This document shows positions 38,671-47,912 of a stretch of 64,000 nucleotides of DNA, in pieces. The position numbers and the translations under genes are program-made. The stretch is from Vicinamibacterales bacterium. Its GTDB lineage: Bacteria > Acidobacteriota > Vicinamibacteria > Vicinamibacterales > 2-12-FULL-66-21. How positions within the stretch are numbered: position 1 is the first letter of the stretch; each line of letters opens with the position of its first letter. The notes beneath the pieces are model-generated. The model did not search any database and was not told where the DNA came from. It saw nothing but the letters and a program-made list of their open reading frames with translations. The stretch lies in the NCBI GenBank assembly GCA_048594975.1, contig JBMDXQ010000090.1, forward strand, positions 7,093 through 71,092, given 5' to 3'.

Positions 38671-39439
38671 GGATCCGCCACCTCCCTGCCGCGTCGACCT
38701 CCGTCATCCTGTCCTCCTCCAGCTTCAGCAGATGGGCGTAGACCGTCTCCTCGGCGGCGGCGGCGATTGCGGCCGCGAGCGGGCCGTAGATCTCGGGCAC
38801 GAGCTCCGCTGTAGACGCGGGCTTCCGGCGAAGGATGGCGACGATCTGCGACTCGCGCTCGGCGCGATGCGCGAGGTAGCCCTCCAGGAGAGCCACCGGC
38901 TCGTCGATAGCGGGCCCGTGGCCGGGCAGCAGGCGGCGCGGCTCGAGATCGCGGATCCGCTTCAGCGACTCCAGGTACTGCCGCAGGCTGCCGCCGTGCC
39001 GCCCCGGGATGACGATCGTCCCGTTCGCGCGCGCCAGGTCGCCGCAGTAGACGTCGCCCGACGATTCGTCGAAAAAACAGAAGTGATCCGGCGAGTGGCC
39101 GGGCGTGTGGATGGCGATCAGGTAGCCGTCGCCCGCCGCGATGCGTTGCGGACCCTGCCCCGGCGCCGCCGCCGCATCACGCGGATCGAAGACGAAGAGC
39201 GGGCTCCAGCGCTCCTGCAGCGCGTCGAGCCCGGAAGCGTGGTCCCTGTGGCCGTGCGTGATCAGCACGCGCGCGAGGCGCACGCCGGCGAGCGACGCCG
39301 CGATCGCCTCGATGTGCGCCGCGTCGCCCACGCCAGCGTCCACGAGCGACGGCACCGCGCCGGTGAGCAGGTAGGTATTGGTCCCCGTCGGGCCCGTCCA
39401 GGACGACGCGTTTCCCGCGGGGATCGTAATCGGCTGCAT
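38660..39439 (-). CDS. MBL-fold metallo-hydrolase (LACTB2-like)
   Basis: GTNTYL, THGHRDH, HTPGHSPDH, GD, PGHG. Confidence 0.9.
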   Translation of the reverse strand: MQPITIPAGNASSWTGPTGTNTYLLTGAVPSLVDAGVGDAAHIEAIAASLAGVRLARVLITHGHRDHASGLDALQERWSPLFVFDPRDAAAAPGQGPQRIAAGDGYLIAIHTPGHSPDHFCFFDESSGDVYCGDLARANGTIVIPGRHGGSLRQYLESLKRIRDLEPRRLLPGHGPAIDEPVALLEGYLAHRAERESQIVAILRRKPASTAELVPEIYGPLAAAIAAAAEETVYAHLLKLEEDRMTEVDAAGRWRILKG

Positions 39440-40644
39440 CAGAAGTACACCTTGAGTCGAGCATAGAGGAAATCGCGGTCGGCGAATCGGCCGACGAGGT
39501 CGCGGCCGGCGCCCGCGAACCACCCTGCCGATCCCTCCAGCGCGAAGTCGTCGGTGAGCTTCGCGGTGACGATCCCGCGGAGGAACCCCGATCCCTCGGT
39601 CGCGCCGTACACGCCGAACACCCGCAGGCTGTATTTCTCGCGTGCGAACGCGCGGTCGGCGGCAAGGACGAGCGACAGGTCCGTGCGCGACGGCTCGCGG
39701 TGCACGAGCGCCGACCCGCTGATGCGGTAATCGCCGGCCTTGCGGTCGATGCCCAGCCCTGCGTCGTACGACTTGCCGCTCGTGTAGGACGCCGGTCCCT
39801 GGAAGCTGTCGCGCAGGAACGCGGCCGCCTCTCCGCGGATGCCCCACTGCCCGCGCACCGTCTCGAAGTCGGCGCCGACCATCGTGAAGCGCGGGTATTC
39901 CCGCACGACTCCGGACGGCGTCGCGGCGAACAGGCCGAAGGGCTCGATACCGCGAAAGGCGGAGACGCTCCAGTCCGCGCGGCCGACCGTGGCGCTGAAG
40001 CGCGCGCCGCCCTGCGCGTTGCGGAGCGCGGCGGCGGGCTCGCGGTCGTCGAACGGCAGCTCGCCCGGATCCGCCACGAGGTTGAAGGGCGAGGTCGGCT
40101 CGTCCAGCCGATCGAACCGGCCGCGCCTGAACAGCGGCACGTAGATAGCCTCGAGTGCCACGTCGTCGGCGAGGAACAGCCGTCCGCGGACGAGCGCCAC
40201 CGGCAGCCGCGCCTCCGAGCGGCCCTCGAGGAAGAACCTGGAGACGTCGAGCGGATTGATCACATCGGTGGGCTGGAGCTCGTCGAGGCGGCCCCACGCG
40301 ATCCGGGCGAAGCCGGCGAGGAGGTCGACGCGCCCGAGCCTCGCCTCGGCGCTGGCGTCCTGCACTTCGGCAATGGCGTCCTTCGCGAAAGCGGGCGGCC
40401 TCCTCTGCCGGAGAGGAGGCAGCCCCCTTCTGGCCAGGAGGCCCTCGGCGAATCCCGACAGGGTCAGGGTCAGGCGATCGGTCGGCGCAATCCTGTGCTC
40501 GGCGAACGCCCGAGCGCGGAGCTCGACCGTGTCGCCGCGGTTCGGAAGATAGTCGACCAGCGCAGACACGTACCCGGTAGGGCGCGTCTGGGCGGCGGCG
40601 TTCGAGGCGAGGAGGAGCAACAGGAGTGCGGCGGCGATGCGCAT
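39439..40644 (-). CDS. Putative outer-membrane beta-barrel (DUF1302-like)
   Basis: Signal peptide; WGRLDELQPTDVINP; alternating beta strands; C-terminal F (KVYF). Confidence 0.65.
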   Translation of the reverse strand: MRIAAALLLLLLASNAAAQTRPTGYVSALVDYLPNRGDTVELRARAFAEHRIAPTDRLTLTLSGFAEGLLARRGLPPLRQRRPPAFAKDAIAEVQDASAEARLGRVDLLAGFARIAWGRLDELQPTDVINPLDVSRFFLEGRSEARLPVALVRGRLFLADDVALEAIYVPLFRRGRFDRLDEPTSPFNLVADPGELPFDDREPAAALRNAQGGARFSATVGRADWSVSAFRGIEPFGLFAATPSGVVREYPRFTMVGADFETVRGQWGIRGEAAAFLRDSFQGPASYTSGKSYDAGLGIDRKAGDYRISGSALVHREPSRTDLSLVLAADRAFAREKYSLRVFGVYGATEGSGFLRGIVTAKLTDDFALEGSAGWFAGAGRDLVGRFADRDFLYARLKVYF

Positions 40645-40666
40645 GCGGACCGAAGGGTGCCTGGGG

Positions 40667-40755
40667 CAGCCCTGAAGGGCGGCACTTCGCATGAGGGTAC
40701 AGCCCTCAAGGGCTGGACTGCGACCCGGGTGCGTGCGGCCCGCCCTCACGCACCC
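40667..40755. repeat. REP-like cluster (CAGCCC-N4-GGGCTG twice plus 9-bp hairpin)
   Basis: CAGCCC-TGAA-GGGCGG at 40667, CAGCCC-TCAA-GGGCTG at 40700, GGGTGCGTG/CACGCACCC at 40727-40755. Confidence 0.65.
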
Positions 40756-43060
40756 CGACCAGGTCACGGCTTGCCACCCCCGATACCCCCGCGCCGTACA
40801 CCCGCGGCAGCGTCCTGATAATCGCCGGCAGAATGAACACCTCCGCGAGGAACGCCACGCTCATCGTCAGCGCCAGCAGCCCGCCGAACCACGCGCTCGG
40901 ACGGTACTCGGACATCAGCAGCACGGCGAATCCAACAGTGTTGATGAGCGCCGTCGTCAGCGACGCCCGGCCTTCGTGTACGGTCGCGGTTTCGATGGCG
41001 GCGTCGGTCGTCGCGCCGGCCGCCACTTCTCGGCGATAACGATTGATGAAGTGAATCGTGTCGTCGTCGACGACCCCGAGCGCGATGCTCGCGACCATCA
41101 CGGTGGCGACGTTCAGCGAGATGTCGAGGTGACCCATCAGGCCCAGCACGGCGAGCACGGGCAGCAGGTTGGGCGCAATGGTCAGCAGCCCGAAGCGGAA
41201 CGAGCGGAAGACGATGAAGATCACCCCGAACACGGTCACGAACGCCATCCCGAAGCTGCTCAATTGCGATATCACCAGGTAGTGGTCGAGCGTGCTGAAC
41301 AGTTTTCCCGAGCCGGTGGTCATGGTGCGGATACCGGTTCCCGCGAAGGCGTCCCTCGCGATCTCCTCGGTCTTCTGGACGACCGCGAGCACCACGTCGG
41401 AGCTCATCGAGCGGAGCTTGATGGAGATCTGCGCCCGCGAGAAGTCGCTGGCGGCGATCCGCTCGAGCTCGTGGCGGCCTTCGCCGCCGAGCGTGAACGC
41501 GAACAGCTCCTGGGCGATGGTCGCGGCGTCTCCCGGCACGACGTCAGCCTCATCGCGCCCGTCGTTCAGCTCCTTGTTGATCCGGCGGACGTAGTCCGCG
41601 AGCGACGTGACCTTCTTCACCTCGGGCAGGTTGCGGAGATCGTTCGCGAGCCGATCCATCCGCCGCAGCGCCTCCGGTGTCTTCAGCGCGTCCGGCTCCC
41701 CTTCCAGCATGACCTGGAAGCTGTAGACCCCCGAGAGCTCCGAGTCGATCACCCTGGCCGATTCGCCCAGCGGGTGGGTCTCGCTGAAGAAGTGGATGTG
41801 GTTGGTGTCCACGCGGAGGCGCAGCATGCCGGCAATCGCCACCGCCGCAACCACCAGCGCCAGCGCGAGGACGCGGCCCGGGAATCGCGACGAGAGGCGT
41901 GCGATCGCCAGCATGGACGGCAGGAGATAACGCTCGTGCGGCGCCGTCGCGGTCTCCGGCTTCGCCAACTGCAGCAGCGTCGGCACCAGGATCACCGAGA
42001 GCGCGAAGTCCACCATGATGCCGACCGCCGCTCCGATGCCGAACGTGCGCACGGCGACCACGTCGCTGGTGGCGAGCGACAGCATCCCGAGGGCGGTGGT
42101 CAGGCTGGCGCCGAAGAGCGGCGTGAGCAGGTGCGCGACGGTTCGCTTGAACGCCGCCTCGCTGTCGCCAACCCGGCGCTCCTCCTCCCAGTGCTGCATG
42201 ATGTGCACGTCGTCGGCGATCGCCAGCACCACGATGAGCGGCGCGATCATGCTGGAGAGCACGTTGTAGGTGAACCCCATCAGGGTGTACAGACCCAGGG
42301 TCCACAACACGCTTGCCGCGATCGCGATGCAGGCGACCAGCGTCCGCCGCCACGAGCGGAAGGCCGCGTAGATTGCGGCCACCGTGAACAGCAGGATCGG
42401 CGGCATGAACTTGCGCTGGTTGTCGAGCGTGACGCGGTTGTAGGTCTCGCTGATTTCCAGGCTGCCGTTGTAGTAGGCGCGGACACCGGCGGGCAGCTGC
42501 GGCTCGACCACCTCGTGGATCCGCCGGATGACACCGGCGCGGACGTCGTCGATGCGGTCCTCGTCGAAGGTCACGACGATCGCGGTGACGGTCGCGTCCT
42601 CAGACACCAGGTCGCCGCGCAGCAGGTCGTCTCGCAGCGCCCGCCGCCGCACGTCGGCCGGTGGCTGCGTGTCGGCGTTCTCCAGGAGGGGCCGGACGTC
42701 GAGGGCGTCGGGGACCGCTTCGACGATGGTTGCGGTCGAGAGACTGGACACGCGGTGCACGGTGTCGACCCGCTCGATGTCGCCGGAGATGCGCTCGATG
42801 GCGCGTAGCGTCTCGCGCGAGAAGAGCAGGTCGGCGCGATCGGCCTGCAGCGCGACGATGAGCGAGCGCGTGCCGCCGAATTCGCGGCGGAAGCGCTCGT
42901 AGTCCTGGTAGACCGGATCCGCGGTCGAGAACCAGGCGGTGATGTCGTTGTCGATGCGGGTGAAGTCGGCGCGCGGCGCCAGCGCGATCGCGCCGAGCAG
43001 GATGAACGCCGACAGCGGCCGGCGCCAGCGGTAGATGACGCCCGCGACGATGCGGCTCAT
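40706..43060 (-). CDS. MMPL/RND family transporter
   Basis: Two-repeat topology; LAIADDVHI and LGVVDDDTIHF TM motifs; FGASLTTALG. Confidence 0.9.
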   Translation of the reverse strand: MSRIVAGVIYRWRRPLSAFILLGAIALAPRADFTRIDNDITAWFSTADPVYQDYERFRREFGGTRSLIVALQADRADLLFSRETLRAIERISGDIERVDTVHRVSSLSTATIVEAVPDALDVRPLLENADTQPPADVRRRALRDDLLRGDLVSEDATVTAIVVTFDEDRIDDVRAGVIRRIHEVVEPQLPAGVRAYYNGSLEISETYNRVTLDNQRKFMPPILLFTVAAIYAAFRSWRRTLVACIAIAASVLWTLGLYTLMGFTYNVLSSMIAPLIVVLAIADDVHIMQHWEEERRVGDSEAAFKRTVAHLLTPLFGASLTTALGMLSLATSDVVAVRTFGIGAAVGIMVDFALSVILVPTLLQLAKPETATAPHERYLLPSMLAIARLSSRFPGRVLALALVVAAVAIAGMLRLRVDTNHIHFFSETHPLGESARVIDSELSGVYSFQVMLEGEPDALKTPEALRRMDRLANDLRNLPEVKKVTSLADYVRRINKELNDGRDEADVVPGDAATIAQELFAFTLGGEGRHELERIAASDFSRAQISIKLRSMSSDVVLAVVQKTEEIARDAFAGTGIRTMTTGSGKLFSTLDHYLVISQLSSFGMAFVTVFGVIFIVFRSFRFGLLTIAPNLLPVLAVLGLMGHLDISLNVATVMVASIALGVVDDDTIHFINRYRREVAAGATTDAAIETATVHEGRASLTTALINTVGFAVLLMSEYRPSAWFGGLLALTMSVAFLAEVFILPAIIRTLPRVYGAGVSGVASRDLVGVREGGPHAPGSQSSP

Positions 43061-43959
43061 CTATCGGCCGGGACTCCACGCTCGAGCTCGCGGCGGCTGA
43101 AGTCAGACGCCTTCAGCCCGACGTTGTAGTCGATGCGCTCGACCACGAGCTCGGTCCGCGTCTTCTCCTGCGCGTCCACCATCTCGGCAGCCATCGCCGT
43201 CCAGATCCCTTCCACCGGCTCGAGCCGCCGCACGGCGTAGGTCTTCTGCTTCTCGTCCCTGCGGTTGTGGATCTCCGCGTGTGCGACGACGAAGAGGTCC
43301 TTCAGCACGATCGAGACGACGCGCGGGAACTTCGCGGCGGCGTCCTTACGGCGCGACTCCAGCCGCCAGGCAGGGCGCGCCAGGCCGGAGCCGGTCGACC
43401 ACGACGCGTTCTCGTCCAGGATCGAGTAGGTGTACTCGTCGAGCTCGCGCCCGCCGATGTCCTCGTAGGTGAAGTCGGTGCCGACGAAGCTTTCCTGCGT
43501 CTCCGCTCCGGCGATGCGGCGGACGCGGGCCAGCGCGGGCAGGTAGAGGAAGCGCTCGTCGTCGGCGTCGGGGCGCTCCCACACGAGGAAGCTGGTGCCG
43601 CGGATGTCGTTCGGGTAGGTGAAGCGGATCAGCAGGCGATCACCGGCTGGCGCGTCCTTGCCGCCGCCGGCGCTGCGGCCGCGCAGGGCAATCATCGTCA
43701 GCGCGCGCTCGCGCGCGCGGCCGTGCGGATCGAACAGTCTCATCCGCAGCGTGGTCCGGCTGTCCAGGCCAGTGTGGCGGTCATGAACGCGGCGCGCTAT
43801 CTCATCCGCCGTCAGACGCTGCCCGCCGTCAGGTGTGATCGTCTCAATTCCCGACGCGCCAACGGCCAACAGCCAGACGCCGAAGACGGCAACCCCCACC
43901 AGGCAAAGACCGAGGGTCAAGGCGCGCCCGCTCAAGAGGGGTTCTTTGGAGATCGCCAT
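43057..43959 (-). CDS. Outer-membrane lipoprotein-sorting (LolA-like) protein; start uncertain
   Basis: RFTYPNDIRGTSFL, FLYLPALARVRRIA, SFVGTDFTYEDI, YNVGL...FSRREL. Confidence 0.85.
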   Translation of the reverse strand: MAISKEPLLSGRALTLGLCLVGVAVFGVWLLAVGASGIETITPDGGQRLTADEIARRVHDRHTGLDSRTTLRMRLFDPHGRARERALTMIALRGRSAGGGKDAPAGDRLLIRFTYPNDIRGTSFLVWERPDADDERFLYLPALARVRRIAGAETQESFVGTDFTYEDIGGRELDEYTYSILDENASWSTGSGLARPAWRLESRRKDAAAKFPRVVSIVLKDLFVVAHAEIHNRRDEKQKTYAVRRLEPVEGIWTAMAAEMVDAQEKTRTELVVERIDYNVGLKASDFSRRELERGVPADR

Positions 43960-44097
43960 TTGCACATTGGGGGCTGGAAAGTTCGGCCGTCGGCCTTTGG
44001 GAGTTGGGAATCGACCACGCCCTGGCGCCGCCATTGGCGCCATCGATTATCTGAATGCCCCTGTGAGTAAAGCAAGCCGCCGGGTTACCATCGCTGT

Positions 44098-44313
44098 ATG
44101 GTGCTCATCTTCGGCAAGGACACGTGACCCTATACGATGGCAGCGCGTGAGGATCACGCCAGGCGCAGGGTCGAGTTCGAGTACATCAACGTCAAGAAGG
44201 ACCGCGCGCAGCTCGAGCGCATGATGCGCCTCACCGGGGGCCGCCGCGACGTGCCGGTCATCGTCGACGGCGACAAGGTGACGATCGGCTTCGGCGGCAC
44301 CTGAGGCGTGTAG
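44098..44313 (+). CDS. Glutaredoxin-like selenoprotein with two Sec codons (UXX-star type), 71 aa
   Basis: MVLIFGKDT-U-PYT...RDVPVIVDGDKVTIGFGGT-U-GV*; TGA at 44125 in the Grx CPY(T/C) position and at 44302; Grx VP and GG motifs lie beyond the first TGA. Confidence 0.88.
44145..44159 (+). promoter_or_regulatory. SECIS-like hairpin 1 (in coding region)
   Basis: GCGTGA-GGA-TCACGC; G-first loop begins 23 nt after UGA. Confidence 0.65.
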
Positions 44314-44336
44314 CGGCCGCCGGCGGCGGCCAACGC
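44306..44336 (+). promoter_or_regulatory. SECIS-like hairpin 2 (spans stop and 3' flank)
   Basis: GGCCGCC-GGC-GGCGGCC with lower GCGT/ACGC stem; loop begins 17 nt after UGA. Confidence 0.6.
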
Positions 44337-44389
44337 GCCCGTCACGTGCCGCGGCGTGCGGGAACCCGGCGACAGGCGCGTGCCGGGTG

Positions 44390-44791
44390 TTACCGCGGCC
44401 CCGAGAGCAGGGCCCGCACGTCGTCGGGGACCGGCACCGGCCTGCCGGCCGCGTAGTCGTACGCGACCAGTATGGTCTTCGCGGTGGCGACCATGTTGCC
44501 GTCCTGGTCGACGATCTCGTACTCGTAGGTGAAGCTCGTCCGGCCGATGGCGGCTACGCCGATGCGGATTTCGAGCAGGTCGCCATACCGGGCAGGCCGC
44601 CGGAAATCGATCTCGGCGCGCGCGAGGATGACGCCGGGCACGTCCTCCCCCGACGCGAAGCGCCTGACCGAGCGCCAGTGCGCGAACCGCGCCTGCTCGA
44701 GATAGGTGAGATACACCGCGTTGTTCACGTGCCCCATCGGGTCGCAGTCGCGGAACCGGACTTCCAGGCGGTGAGAGAAGATCGAATCCAT
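44390..44791 (-). CDS. Acyl-CoA thioesterase (4HBT/YbgC-like hot-dog fold)
   Basis: VRFRDCDPMGHVNNAVYLTYLEQAR, IGRTSFTYEY. Confidence 0.9.
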   Translation of the reverse strand: MDSIFSHRLEVRFRDCDPMGHVNNAVYLTYLEQARFAHWRSVRRFASGEDVPGVILARAEIDFRRPARYGDLLEIRIGVAAIGRTSFTYEYEIVDQDGNMVATAKTILVAYDYAAGRPVPVPDDVRALLSGPR

Positions 44792-44881
44792 AGATGATCC
44801 GTGTGACACGGCGCGGTCGGGCACGGGCCAAGGCGCCGAACGCCGAGCGCCGAGCGCGGAAAAGAAGCATACAATCCCGCC

Positions 44882-46546
44882 GTGCCCTCCACCCTCGCTT
44901 CGGCCGAACCCTTCACCGAGGACGAACGCGCGCGGCTCGCGCCTTATTTCACCAACCTCGACGGCCACGTTTTCGCGCTGACGAATCTCCCGGAGACGGT
45001 CAAGGGGGCACTCTTCGCGCGGTACTCGCGCTCCCCGAAGTCGCTTCGGCGGCTGTTTCTCGACGAGTTCGCGGACAAGGTCGGCGCGGAGCCTTCGGTC
45101 GTGCAGGACGCCGGTGACGACAACCGACGGCCGGCTGCGAACGTCGCAACGACCCTGGCCGCGACCGAGCGCGCCGAACGGCTGTACGCGCGGGTGTTCA
45201 ACGACTACGGCGACGACTCGGTCGCGCAGCTGGGTGGCGCGCACATCGCCTGCGAGTACGTGTCGAACGTCCTCACGAAGGTGCTCGAGTGGGGCCGGCT
45301 GATGGCGTATCTCGAGCAGTCGACACGCTACGTGCCGTACACGGACAAGCTGCACGGGCGGTGGAGGTATCACGTCCCCGCCGAGATTGGCGAGGGCGCG
45401 CTGCGGGAGCAGTACGTCGGCACGATGGACGCGGTGTTCGAGACCTACGCGAAGTGGATCCCCGTCATGCAGGGGTACTTCGAGGCGCGATACCCGAAAG
45501 GACCGGCGGACTCCGAGGTGGTGCACCGCGCCGCGATCCGCGCCAAGGCTCTCGACACTCTGCGCGGGCTGCTCCCGGCCGCCACCCAGTCGAACGTGGG
45601 CATCTACGGGACCGGTCAGGCGTTCGAAGCGCTGCTCCTCCGGATGCGCGCCAGCCCCCTCGCCGAGGCGCAGCAGTGCGCCGCCGCGATGCTCACCGAG
45701 CTGCGCAAAGTGATCCCGGCGTTCCTGACGCGTGTCGATCAGCCGGACCGCGGCGAACGCTGGCGCGCCTACCTCGCGGAGACGCGGCAGGCGACGACGA
45801 CCGCGGCCGAGCGCGCGCTCGCCGGGCGCGAGCCCGAGCCGCGCGACGAGGTCACGCTGACCGACTTCGACCCCGACGGTGAAACCAAGATCGTCGCCGC
45901 CGCGCTGTACGGCGCCTCGGACTTTCCCGACGACCAGCTGCTGGCCATCGCGCGGCGGATGACCGCCGCGGAGCGCGCCGCGGTCCTGCGGGCCTACGTC
46001 GGCTCCCGCGCCAACCGCCGCCATCGGCCGGGACGTGCGTTCGAGCGGACCGCCTACCGGTTCGACATCCTGACCGACTACGGCGCATTCCGCGATCTGC
46101 AACGCCATCGGCTGCTGACGCTCGAGTGGCAGCCGCTCACGACGCGCCACGGCTACACGCAGCCGGAGGCCATCCGCGCGGCAGGCGGCAGCGCCGACTG
46201 GGAGCGGGTGATGGACGCCTCGGCCGACCTGCACGACGCCATCCTGGCGGCAGGCCGGCGCGAGGCGGCGCCGTACGCTGTCGCCATGGCCTACCGCGTC
46301 CGCTTCTACATCGAGATGAACGCGCGCGAAGCGATGCACCTCATCGAGCTGCGCACCGCGCCCCAGGGCCACCCGGCTTACCGCCGCGTCTGTCAGCAGA
46401 TGCACCGCCTTATTGCCGACCGCGCCGGCCACCAGGCCGTGGCGGCGGCAATGCAGTTCGTCGATCACTCGGAGGTGGAACTCGAGCGGCTGAACGCGGA
46501 ACGGAGGCTCGAGAAGAAGCGGCGGGAGGTGGAAGAGAGAGGGTAA
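44882..46546 (+). CDS. thyX: FAD-dependent thymidylate synthase, tandem-domain form
   Basis: LFARYSRS, YGDDSVAQL, EQSTRY, LDTLRGLLP, DLQRHR, ELRTAPQGH..YR. Confidence 0.85.
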   Translation: MPSTLASAEPFTEDERARLAPYFTNLDGHVFALTNLPETVKGALFARYSRSPKSLRRLFLDEFADKVGAEPSVVQDAGDDNRRPAANVATTLAATERAERLYARVFNDYGDDSVAQLGGAHIACEYVSNVLTKVLEWGRLMAYLEQSTRYVPYTDKLHGRWRYHVPAEIGEGALREQYVGTMDAVFETYAKWIPVMQGYFEARYPKGPADSEVVHRAAIRAKALDTLRGLLPAATQSNVGIYGTGQAFEALLLRMRASPLAEAQQCAAAMLTELRKVIPAFLTRVDQPDRGERWRAYLAETRQATTTAAERALAGREPEPRDEVTLTDFDPDGETKIVAAALYGASDFPDDQLLAIARRMTAAERAAVLRAYVGSRANRRHRPGRAFERTAYRFDILTDYGAFRDLQRHRLLTLEWQPLTTRHGYTQPEAIRAAGGSADWERVMDASADLHDAILAAGRREAAPYAVAMAYRVRFYIEMNAREAMHLIELRTAPQGHPAYRRVCQQMHRLIADRAGHQAVAAAMQFVDHSEVELERLNAERRLEKKRREVEERG

Positions 46547-47251: not shown

Positions 47252-47402
47252 AGCTGGATTATAGGGCTGGCAATAATTCCCACCGGCCATCGACCTGCCG
47301 GGCGAAGCAACCCACCTTCCAGGACCGACTGCTGACAACGCGATTGGGAGTTCCGCAGTTTGGGAGTTGGCGCTTGGTAATTGGGAGTTATCGTTGTCCC
47401 CA

Positions 47403-47912
47403 GTGCAGTACAGGTATTGTCCGCTGTGCGCCGGAACGCTCGAGCCGAAGGTACTGAAGGCGGGCGAGCCGCAGCGGCTGGTCTGCGGCCGCTGCGCGTT
47501 CGTCTTCTACCTCGATCCGAAGGTCGCGGTGGGGACGATCATCGCGGTCGAGGACGGACGCCTCGTACTCGTCAAGCGGGCCATCGAGCCCGGCTACGGG
47601 CTCTGGGTGTTTCCCGGCGGCTACGTGGATCGCGGCGAGGAGATCACCGCGGCGGCGGTCCGTGAGGCGCGCGAGGAGTCCGGGCTCGACGTCCGCCTCG
47701 ACGGGCTCGTCAACATCTACTCCTATCCCGGCCGTCCGCTGATCATCATCGTGTATGCAGCGACCGCGCTCGGCGGCGAGCTGTGCGCCGACGACGAGTG
47801 CCTGGAAGCGAGGCTGTTCGCACCGCGCGAGATTCCGTGGGACGAGCTCGCGTTCCCGAGCACCGGCGACGCGCTGCGCGATTACCTGGCGGGACGAGTG
47901 CAAGGGATGTAA
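47403..47912 (+). CDS. NUDIX hydrolase with N-terminal zinc ribbon
   Basis: YCPLCA..CGRC, PGGYVDRGEEITAAAVREAREESG. Confidence 0.88.
   Translation: MQYRYCPLCAGTLEPKVLKAGEPQRLVCGRCAFVFYLDPKVAVGTIIAVEDGRLVLVKRAIEPGYGLWVFPGGYVDRGEEITAAAVREAREESGLDVRLDGLVNIYSYPGRPLIIIVYAATALGGELCADDECLEARLFAPREIPWDELAFPSTGDALRDYLAGRVQGM

Follow-up and report, generated by a model that had tools for sequence, protein, structure and literature searches.

Results

A short gene with two in-frame UGA codons

The window analyzed here is a stretch of 64,000 nucleotides (contig C154, positions 7093-71092) from a soil Vicinamibacterales (Acidobacteriota) MAG of 7.2 Mb, 163 contigs and 68% G+C. Positions are those of the window unless a contig is named. 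We found a small gene on the forward strand that contains two in-frame UGA codons. The gene and its elements are as follows.

44086..44091, + strand: -10-like hexamer TACCAT, spaced 6 nt from the ATG; putative promoter of a leaderless mRNA (Shine-Dalgarno motif absent)
44098..44313, + strand: CDS of a UXX-star family 1 glutaredoxin-like selenoprotein, 71 aa, ATG at 44098 and TAG at 44311-44313 (from translation, NF041114, PF00462, AF2 and Foldseek)
44125..44127, + strand: UGA codon 10, predicted Sec of the U-P-Y-T active-site motif
44137..44304, + strand: internal 55-aa ORF, from an ATG to the second TGA (stop-to-stop ORF listing; P0003, 100% identity)
44138..44167, + strand: likely SECIS 1, within the CDS (agrees with the bSECIS rules; synonymous-site conservation in Sec-type genes)
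44302..44304, + strand: UGA codon 69, predicted Sec 3 residues before the C-terminus (G-G-T-U-G-V-stop)
44305..44339, + strand: predicted SECIS 2, across the stop codon and into the 3' UTR (fold; kept in relatives)

With TGA read as U, positions 44098-44310 translate as MVLIFGKDTUPYTMAAREDHARRRVEFEYINVKKDRAQLERMMRLTGGRRDVPVIVDGDKVTIGFGGTUGV*. The codon-69 TGA is followed by GGC GTG TAG, so that the protein has a U-x-x-star ending. A first-pass annotation of this DNA, made from the sequence, had proposed a 71-aa peptide with U10 and U69 followed by TAG, and re-translation reproduced it to the base. That annotation had also called the gene unannotated. This is nearly right: the sole product recorded for the locus is the 55-aa internal ORF (P0003), in which strand 1 and the active site are missing.

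The two TGA codons are not an artifact of sequencing. Logan contigs from four metagenome runs (soil or straw) contain the selenoprotein stretch with 0 differences, and we rejected sequencing error on this basis; these runs are possibly the source samples, so that they exclude an assembly slip and do not represent independent strains. The runs found to hold the stretch were DNA only; no RNA run in the Logan search held it. We also rejected a global reassignment of TGA, since TGA is the ordinary stop codon of four neighboring genes and none of the seven neighbors has an internal TGA.

The protein belongs to a catalogued selenoprotein family

We searched profile collections with the protein sequence, entering U as C. 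It matched NF041114 of NCBIfam, "UXX-star selenoprotein family 1", over the entire profile (1-70 of 70) at 119.1 bits, well above the curated cut-off of 72. The parent subfamily NF041212 (102.7 bits; cut-off 66) and the Pfam family Glutaredoxin, PF00462 (40.1 bits; cut-off 22.9), were also matched, and a six-frame search of the genome recovered the NF041114 match at 104.2 bits with 2 TGA codons read through. In contrast, the ordinary Grx, NrdH and mycoredoxin models of NCBIfam were all well under their own cut-offs. For example, TIGR02181 (Grx3) scored 39.2 against 90 and TIGR02194 (NrdH) 25.4 against 85.75, and the protein has U-P-Y-T in place of C-x-x-C. These matches bear out the first-pass suggestion of a glutaredoxin-like protein of the UXX-star kind.

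Orthologues in Vicinamibacterales MAGs are named "UXX-star (seleno)protein family 1" by NCBI, and truncated 68-aa orthologues are named "glutaredoxin 3" by JGI. A 2026 review lists the family as 'Distant Grx-like protein 1', with 2 Sec, and cites Haft & Tolstoy 2025 (mSystems) for the UXX-star families (PMC13188914). The phrase "distant Grx" is absent from the main text of Zhang & Gladyshev 2008 (the GOS paper), which is apparently the review's reference 61. Selenoproteins of Acidobacteria have been counted since 2006 (PMC1794560). Thus, the two-Sec form is already catalogued and orthologues from the same order are already named; novelty is low, and the gene is nothing new in kind.

Relatives have Cys or Sec at both positions

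A match to NF041114 above the cut-off was found in 37 of 61 related genomes, each with 1-2 in-frame TGA codons. We read 106 family genes, taken from loci of related genomes and 80 loci of GTDB genomes. Records labelled Thermoanaerobaculia, Desulfobacterota, Methylomirabilota, Woeseiaceae, Brocadiales, Bacillota and Cryosericum contain members of the family as well. Following a check proposed with the first-pass annotation, we looked for Cys-containing homologues at both TGAs, and Cys or Sec aligned at both. At the C-terminal codon, 105 genes have TGA and one, from a Deltaproteobacteria MAG (L105), has TGC. At the active-site codon, 54 have TGA and 52 have TGC or TGT. As pairs (active site/C-terminus), 54 genes are U/U, 51 are C/U and one is C/C.

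The stop codon after U-x-x is TGA in 57 of the 106 genes, TAG in 39 and TAA in 10. That is, in 57 genes (among loci L020-L129) UGA specifies Sec-69 and, 9 nt on, stop; the window gene uses TAG. In these double-UGA genes, the SECIS loop follows the first UGA by 16-21 nt and the second by only 7-12 nt. They would provide a natural case of spacing deciding between Sec and stop.

Three loci (L084, L096 and L104) have near-identical Grx-like genes, Vicinamibacterales-like synteny and ThyX proteins of 60-65% identity. Two of them are labelled Woeseiaceae and one marine Acidobacteria; the labels of the bins may be wrong, or the block may have been transferred recently.

A hairpin beyond the stop codon is conserved in the family

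Both UGAs are followed by a hairpin that agrees with the bSECIS rules, which are a loop of 3-9 nt, a G in the first two loop positions, a stem of at least 4 bp, a distance of 16-37 nt after the UGA, and an MFE of -7.5 kcal/mol or lower (PMC13188914, section 5). The apical hairpin of SECIS 2 is GGCCGCC-GGC-GGCGGCC (44315-44331), with a 7-bp stem (44315-44321 with 44325-44331) and the loop GGC at 44322-44324, 17 nt after UGA-69. It lies wholly past the TAG; a lower stem pairs 44305-44311 with 44333-44339. No T-run follows the hairpin, and a scan for terminators found none.

The folding energies of the single sequences are unremarkable for DNA of 68% G+C (z of -0.5 to -2.0). The window hairpins alone therefore prove nothing, and the case rests on comparison. 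Our comparative test combined the bSECIS rules with a stricter requirement, a perfectly paired stem of 5 bp or more. At site 2, 87 of 98 distinct family genes passed, and in 82 the loop was at 16-21 nt. These elements had 72 different 5' stem sequences, and the usual loops were GGC, GGU, GUC, GGUC and CGUGC. In contrast, only 10.9% of 3000 random TGAs of the same genome passed, with loops spread evenly over 16-37 nt. At the ends of ORFs of at least 500 codons, with a pseudo-UGA placed at the stop minus 9, 15% passed and 4.5% had a loop at 16-21 nt. The view that site 2 has a SECIS element across and beyond the stop codon is thus well supported by comparison of sequences.

The element within the coding sequence is conserved as sequence

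SECIS 1 has the apical hairpin GCGUGA-GGA-UCACGC (44145-44159) and a short lower stem. Its 6-bp stem pairs 44145-44150 with 44154-44159 around the loop GGA at 44151-44153, 23 nt after UGA-10. Folding of the 37 nt at 44134-44170 gives an MFE of -10.7 kcal/mol; with the 57 nt after the UGA it is -13.9 kcal/mol. In the window gene His20 is encoded by CAC; most relatives have Tyr (TAC or TAT), and through the T-to-C change the apical stem has a G-C pair in place of G-U.

Tests of structure gave little at this site. Two of 52 Sec-type genes passed the perfect-stem test. With a looser test based on MFE and the bSECIS rules, 14 of 52 passed, compared to 20% of random TGAs; the window element passed. 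In a ten-pair model, 76% of cells were paired, with no excess over shuffles and hence no signal of covariation.

We found that the synonymous sites 16-26 nt after UGA-10 (GCC-CGT) are conserved in Sec-type genes and not in Cys-type genes. The third-position entropy, Sec-type compared to Cys-type, was 0.27 versus 1.59 bits at Ala16 and 0.62 versus 1.73 bits at Arg17. Arg17 is CGT in 44 of 52 Sec-type genes and in 6 of 47 Cys-type genes, and the motif CCCGKGAVGA is found in 44 of 52 and 5 of 47, respectively. On the best tree of the 70-aa protein, the link between TGA-10 and the CGT motif involved 16 state changes, one of them on supported branches; the tree is weak. We conclude that SECIS 1 is likely real, a view that draws on conservation of sequence and not on structure statistics.

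The first-pass annotation had described hairpins with GG-starting loops 23 and 17 nt after the two UGAs, and this geometry was correct. It had taken both for SECIS-like elements, the second extending past the stop. For the second, the comparison with controls agrees. For the first, the window element has the form that the bSECIS rules describe, and the family adds support through sequence conservation, not covariation.

The genome encodes selenocysteine machinery

A selenoprotein at this locus implied a selABCD system in the host, as had been pointed out in the first-pass annotation, and all four genes are present. Profile searches of the genome gave matches above the cut-offs for selA (540.9 bits, summed), selB (355 bits) and selD (360 bits). 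The selD gene is itself Sec-encoded, with one in-frame TGA in the matched region (C154:464293-465222, - strand), ~393 kb beyond the window. ARAGORN identified a tRNA-Sec of 99 nt with the bacterial 8/5 acceptor/T-arm fold (C4:17155-17253). A second tRNA-SeC call (C7:59474-59561, - strand) has mismatches in the acceptor and T stems and is probably false.

Taken together, the profile matches, the Cys/Sec alignments, the conserved elements and the machinery lead us to conclude that a genuine gene of UXX-star selenoprotein family 1 lies at 44098-44313 and was mis-called; the record needs an annotation fix. We regard it as very probable that the protein is a family member and that both UGAs are decoded as Sec.

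Gene callers that work from stop to stop reduce this gene to the 55-aa fragment without the active site, and its Cys-type relatives to 68 aa. Catalogues of soil metagenomes therefore under-count a selenoprotein found in ~60% of the related Vicinamibacterales genomes searched.

Two other features of this genome lie outside the window. Another Grx/NrdH-like ORF (C66, about 130012-130197; 1501-1686 of locus L018) has an in-frame TGA in G-U-L-G-C (UxxC) and a later TGA as stop. It is below every NCBIfam cut-off (the best match, YruB-like, scored 47.8 against 88.6) and is probably a generic Grx-like UxxC selenoprotein. There are also two tmRNA genes (C48:167944-168296 and C51:67117-67470). They have the same tag, ADTQLALAA, but are only 91% identical and differ in their flanks; the pair is either a true second copy or comes from a related organism's contig in the bin (contamination estimate, 1.6%).

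The start region and the neighborhood

The hexamer TACCAT 6 nt before the ATG had suggested in the first reading that the gene is leaderless. The hexamer is there, and the relatives support this idea. Among 96 distinct orthologue upstream regions, 28 have TAnnnT at a spacing of exactly 6 nt from the start codon, and every other spacing had 0-4 cases. An SD-like motif was found in none of the 33 regions with a spacer of 5-7 nt, compared to 40 of the 63 others; the window gene is in the group with a spacing of 6. A scan of the start region for a consensus sigma-70 promoter found nothing. The selenoprotein mRNA is probably leaderless.

The neighboring genes are as follows.

40706-43060, - strand: MMPL/RND transporter
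43057-44043, - strand: LolA-like protein
44390-44803, - strand: 4HBT thioesterase
44882-46546, + strand: ThyX, 554 aa
46685-47338, - strand: peptide deformylase
47367-47912, + strand: NUDIX hydrolase

The LolA-like gene runs divergently from the selenoprotein gene, and their start codons are only 54 nt apart. Portions of this block were seen again in 21-49 of 110 loci, with varying orientations. The block is missing from nearly all loci labelled as other phyla or classes; the exceptions are two loci labelled Woeseiaceae that have the whole Vicinamibacterales-type block. No partner gene conserved across phyla was found among the 110 loci. We rejected the synteny partners (thioesterase, ThyX, PDF, NUDIX, LolA-like and MMPL) as functional evidence because they are conserved only within the lineage.

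Two parts of the neighborhood have features of their own. The ThyX gene contains two Thy1 (PF02511) stretches and appears to be a tandem fusion; many Vicinamibacterales loci have kept it close to the Grx-like gene. On the other side, 39439-44043 (- strand) contains co-directional genes for a DUF1302 outer-membrane protein, the MMPL/RND transporter, whose start overlaps the stop of the LolA-like gene by 4 nt, and the LolA-like/DUF1329 protein. This block looks like a system for export of lipids or hydrophobic compounds.

Predicted structure

We modeled the Cys-substituted protein with AlphaFold2, using an alignment of 90 sequences. The model had a pLDDT of 97.9 (at least 93 in the tail) and a beta-alpha-beta-alpha-beta-beta fold: strand 2-6, helix 11-22, strand 27-31, helix 36-46, strand 54-57 and strand 60-63. 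U-P-Y-T (residues 10-13) is at the start of helix 1, as in a glutaredoxin-like fold. The closest solved folds found by Foldseek (TM 0.78-0.82) were the A. fulgidus Grx 3IC4, the clostridial Grx1 7C10/7C12, 3GRX and the NrdH 1H75; TM was 0.82 for 3IC4, 7C12 and 3GRX. The Grx3-glutathione mixed disulfide 3GRX ranked fourth. None of the solved structures is closely related to the 71-aa protein in sequence.

DSSP assigned two extra two-residue bridges to the model, at 51-52 and 69-70. Since the four main strands satisfy one another, these bridges are most simply mutual partners. That is, U69-G70 would pair with D51-V52, just before Pro53.

Discussion

A proposed redox pair between residues 10 and 69

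We propose that SelB and Sec-tRNA(Sec) would read both UGAs as Sec, each directed by its own stem-loop. SECIS 1 would act inside the coding sequence, and SECIS 2 would be an untranslated 3' element that starts just past the TAG. The protein would be a redox module of the monothiol type, with U/C-P-Y-T and no second active-site Cys, and the partner of residue 10 would be the nearly invariant C-terminal Sec. In the model, the tail Thr-Sec-Gly-Val would fold back on the Val52-cisPro53 loop, the site of the glutathione Cys-Gly in glutaredoxins. There, U69 could form an Se-Se bond with U10, or an S-Se bond in the Cys-type relatives, and the 10-69 bond could cycle with a reductant or a substrate.

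We favor the 10-69 pair because of the docking of the tail, the lack of a resolving Cys in U-P-Y-T, the near-invariance of Sec-69 and the swapping of Cys and Sec at position 10. We give a redox mechanism through a 10-69 Se-Se or S-Se pair about an even chance; the proposed Se-Se bond is read from DSSP symbols, and these come from a Cys-substituted model. The first-pass annotation had inferred an intramolecular diselenide switch, and the structure model makes this proposal more plausible. In glutaredoxin complexes (3GRX and others), the residue just ahead of the cis-Pro is where the glutathione Cys-Gly backbone pairs, and this places the sulfur of glutathione on the active-site Cys. A bolder version, which we put forward tentatively and consider somewhat doubtful, is that the tail is a tethered mimic of glutathione and that the U10-U69 or C10-U69 bond copies the Grx-glutathione intermediate. 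The protein would then be a glutathione-independent selenium shuttle, made in Vicinamibacterales from a leaderless mRNA, with SECIS 2 doubling as a 3'-end hairpin. The tail-docking model provides a concrete and cheap hypothesis for the role of the protein.

Alternative explanations

It is possible that the gene is decoded as we propose and that its two Sec residues do something else. The 2026 review suggests that the Sec residues of this family may bind metals or unknown substrates (PMC13188914). They could be ligands of soft metals or metalloids (Hg, As, Cu), and the protein a chaperone or scavenger. Two selenolates brought close by the predicted fold would chelate well, and genes for an MMPL/RND-type transporter and a LolA-like protein adjoin the gene. 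However, the neighborhood has no mer, ars or cop genes and is conserved only in Vicinamibacterales-like genomes. The glutaredoxin scaffold also has its cis-Pro loop and GG motif intact, and free exchange of Cys and Sec at position 10 is typical of redox sites. We consider a role in metal binding improbable. A much less likely notion is that the protein serves specifically to supply electrons to the long ThyX-like flavoprotein (44882-46546), as NrdH does for class Ib ribonucleotide reductase. The predicted fold is similar to that of NrdH, and a ThyX homologue is at most 3 kb away in 48 of 110 loci. But a thioesterase gene is in between, the genes occur in several orientations, and ThyX uses NAD(P)H and FAD directly. 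The link is absent at nearly every locus labelled Thermoanaerobaculia, Desulfobacterota, Methylomirabilota, Bacillota or Cryosericum, and the only loci from other groups that have it are the two labelled Woeseiaceae, which share the whole block. Confined in this way to the Vicinamibacterales-type block, the link looks like lineage synteny. Genomes without ThyX keep the Grx-like gene, which weakens the idea further.

It could also be argued that the gene is decaying or truncated, that one or both TGAs are true stops, and that only a fragment such as the 55-aa ORF, or nothing, is made. Gene callers do yield only that ORF, and the hairpin energies are what one expects from the G+C content. Nevertheless, ~100 relatives keep in frame both the nine codons that precede TGA-10 and the two that follow TGA-69, the TGAs align to Cys codons, and the genome has the Sec machinery. 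The full-length protein is predicted to fold with high confidence, whereas the 55-aa piece would be missing strand 1 and the active site, and the same sequence was recovered from all four metagenome runs. We think there is hardly any chance that this explanation is correct.

Comparison with known systems

The protein is like other members of UXX-star family 1 in its full-length HMM match, glutaredoxin fold, U/C-P-Y-T, G-G-T-U-x-x-stop and two Sec codons. Nothing essential is different: the stop codon here is TAG and not the more common TGA, residue 20 is His and not the usual Tyr, and gene calling in the source data gave only a 55-aa fragment of this copy. It also resembles the dithiol glutaredoxins (E. 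coli Grx3, 3GRX and 1FOV) and NrdH-redoxin (1H75) in fold (TM 0.78-0.82), in the active-site residue at the N-terminus of helix 1, in the cis-Pro loop (V-P) and in the GG motif after strand 4. In contrast to these, it has no second active-site Cys and no C-terminal helix, and it has a Sec-bearing tail.

The Gly-Cys-Sec-Gly arm of mammalian thioredoxin reductase is similar: its Sec is near the C-terminus, and the short tail that bears it is rich in Gly and moves over to a second redox center. For recombinant thioredoxin reductase, the SECIS must lie after the stop codon. However, thioredoxin reductase is a eukaryotic flavoenzyme of unrelated fold, with a eukaryotic 3'-UTR SECIS, and its Sec pairs with the adjacent Cys; the proposed partner here is 59 positions away. 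SelL (UxxU) is thought to form an Se-Se bond. SelL and the prokaryotic UxxU families (NF041115 and the Prx-like UxxU family, the latter in the review table of PMC13188914) also have two Sec in one redox protein of the thioredoxin fold. Their Sec residues are 3 residues apart, in one motif with one shared SECIS region. In contrast, 59 residues separate the two positions in UXX-star family 1, where each Sec has a SECIS of its own and Cys often takes the place of one partner.

Compared to the bSECIS model, SECIS 1 appears to be kept mainly as primary sequence (GCCCGUGAGGA), and the corresponding regions of relatives often fail a simple hairpin test. Both elements agree with the rules drawn for SECIS elements of the E. 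coli fdhF type, but SECIS 2 is outside of the coding sequence. Bacterial SECIS elements have been described as lying in coding regions (PMC13188914). UXX-star family 1 would thus provide a clean natural example of a bacterial SECIS that acts from the 3' untranslated region.
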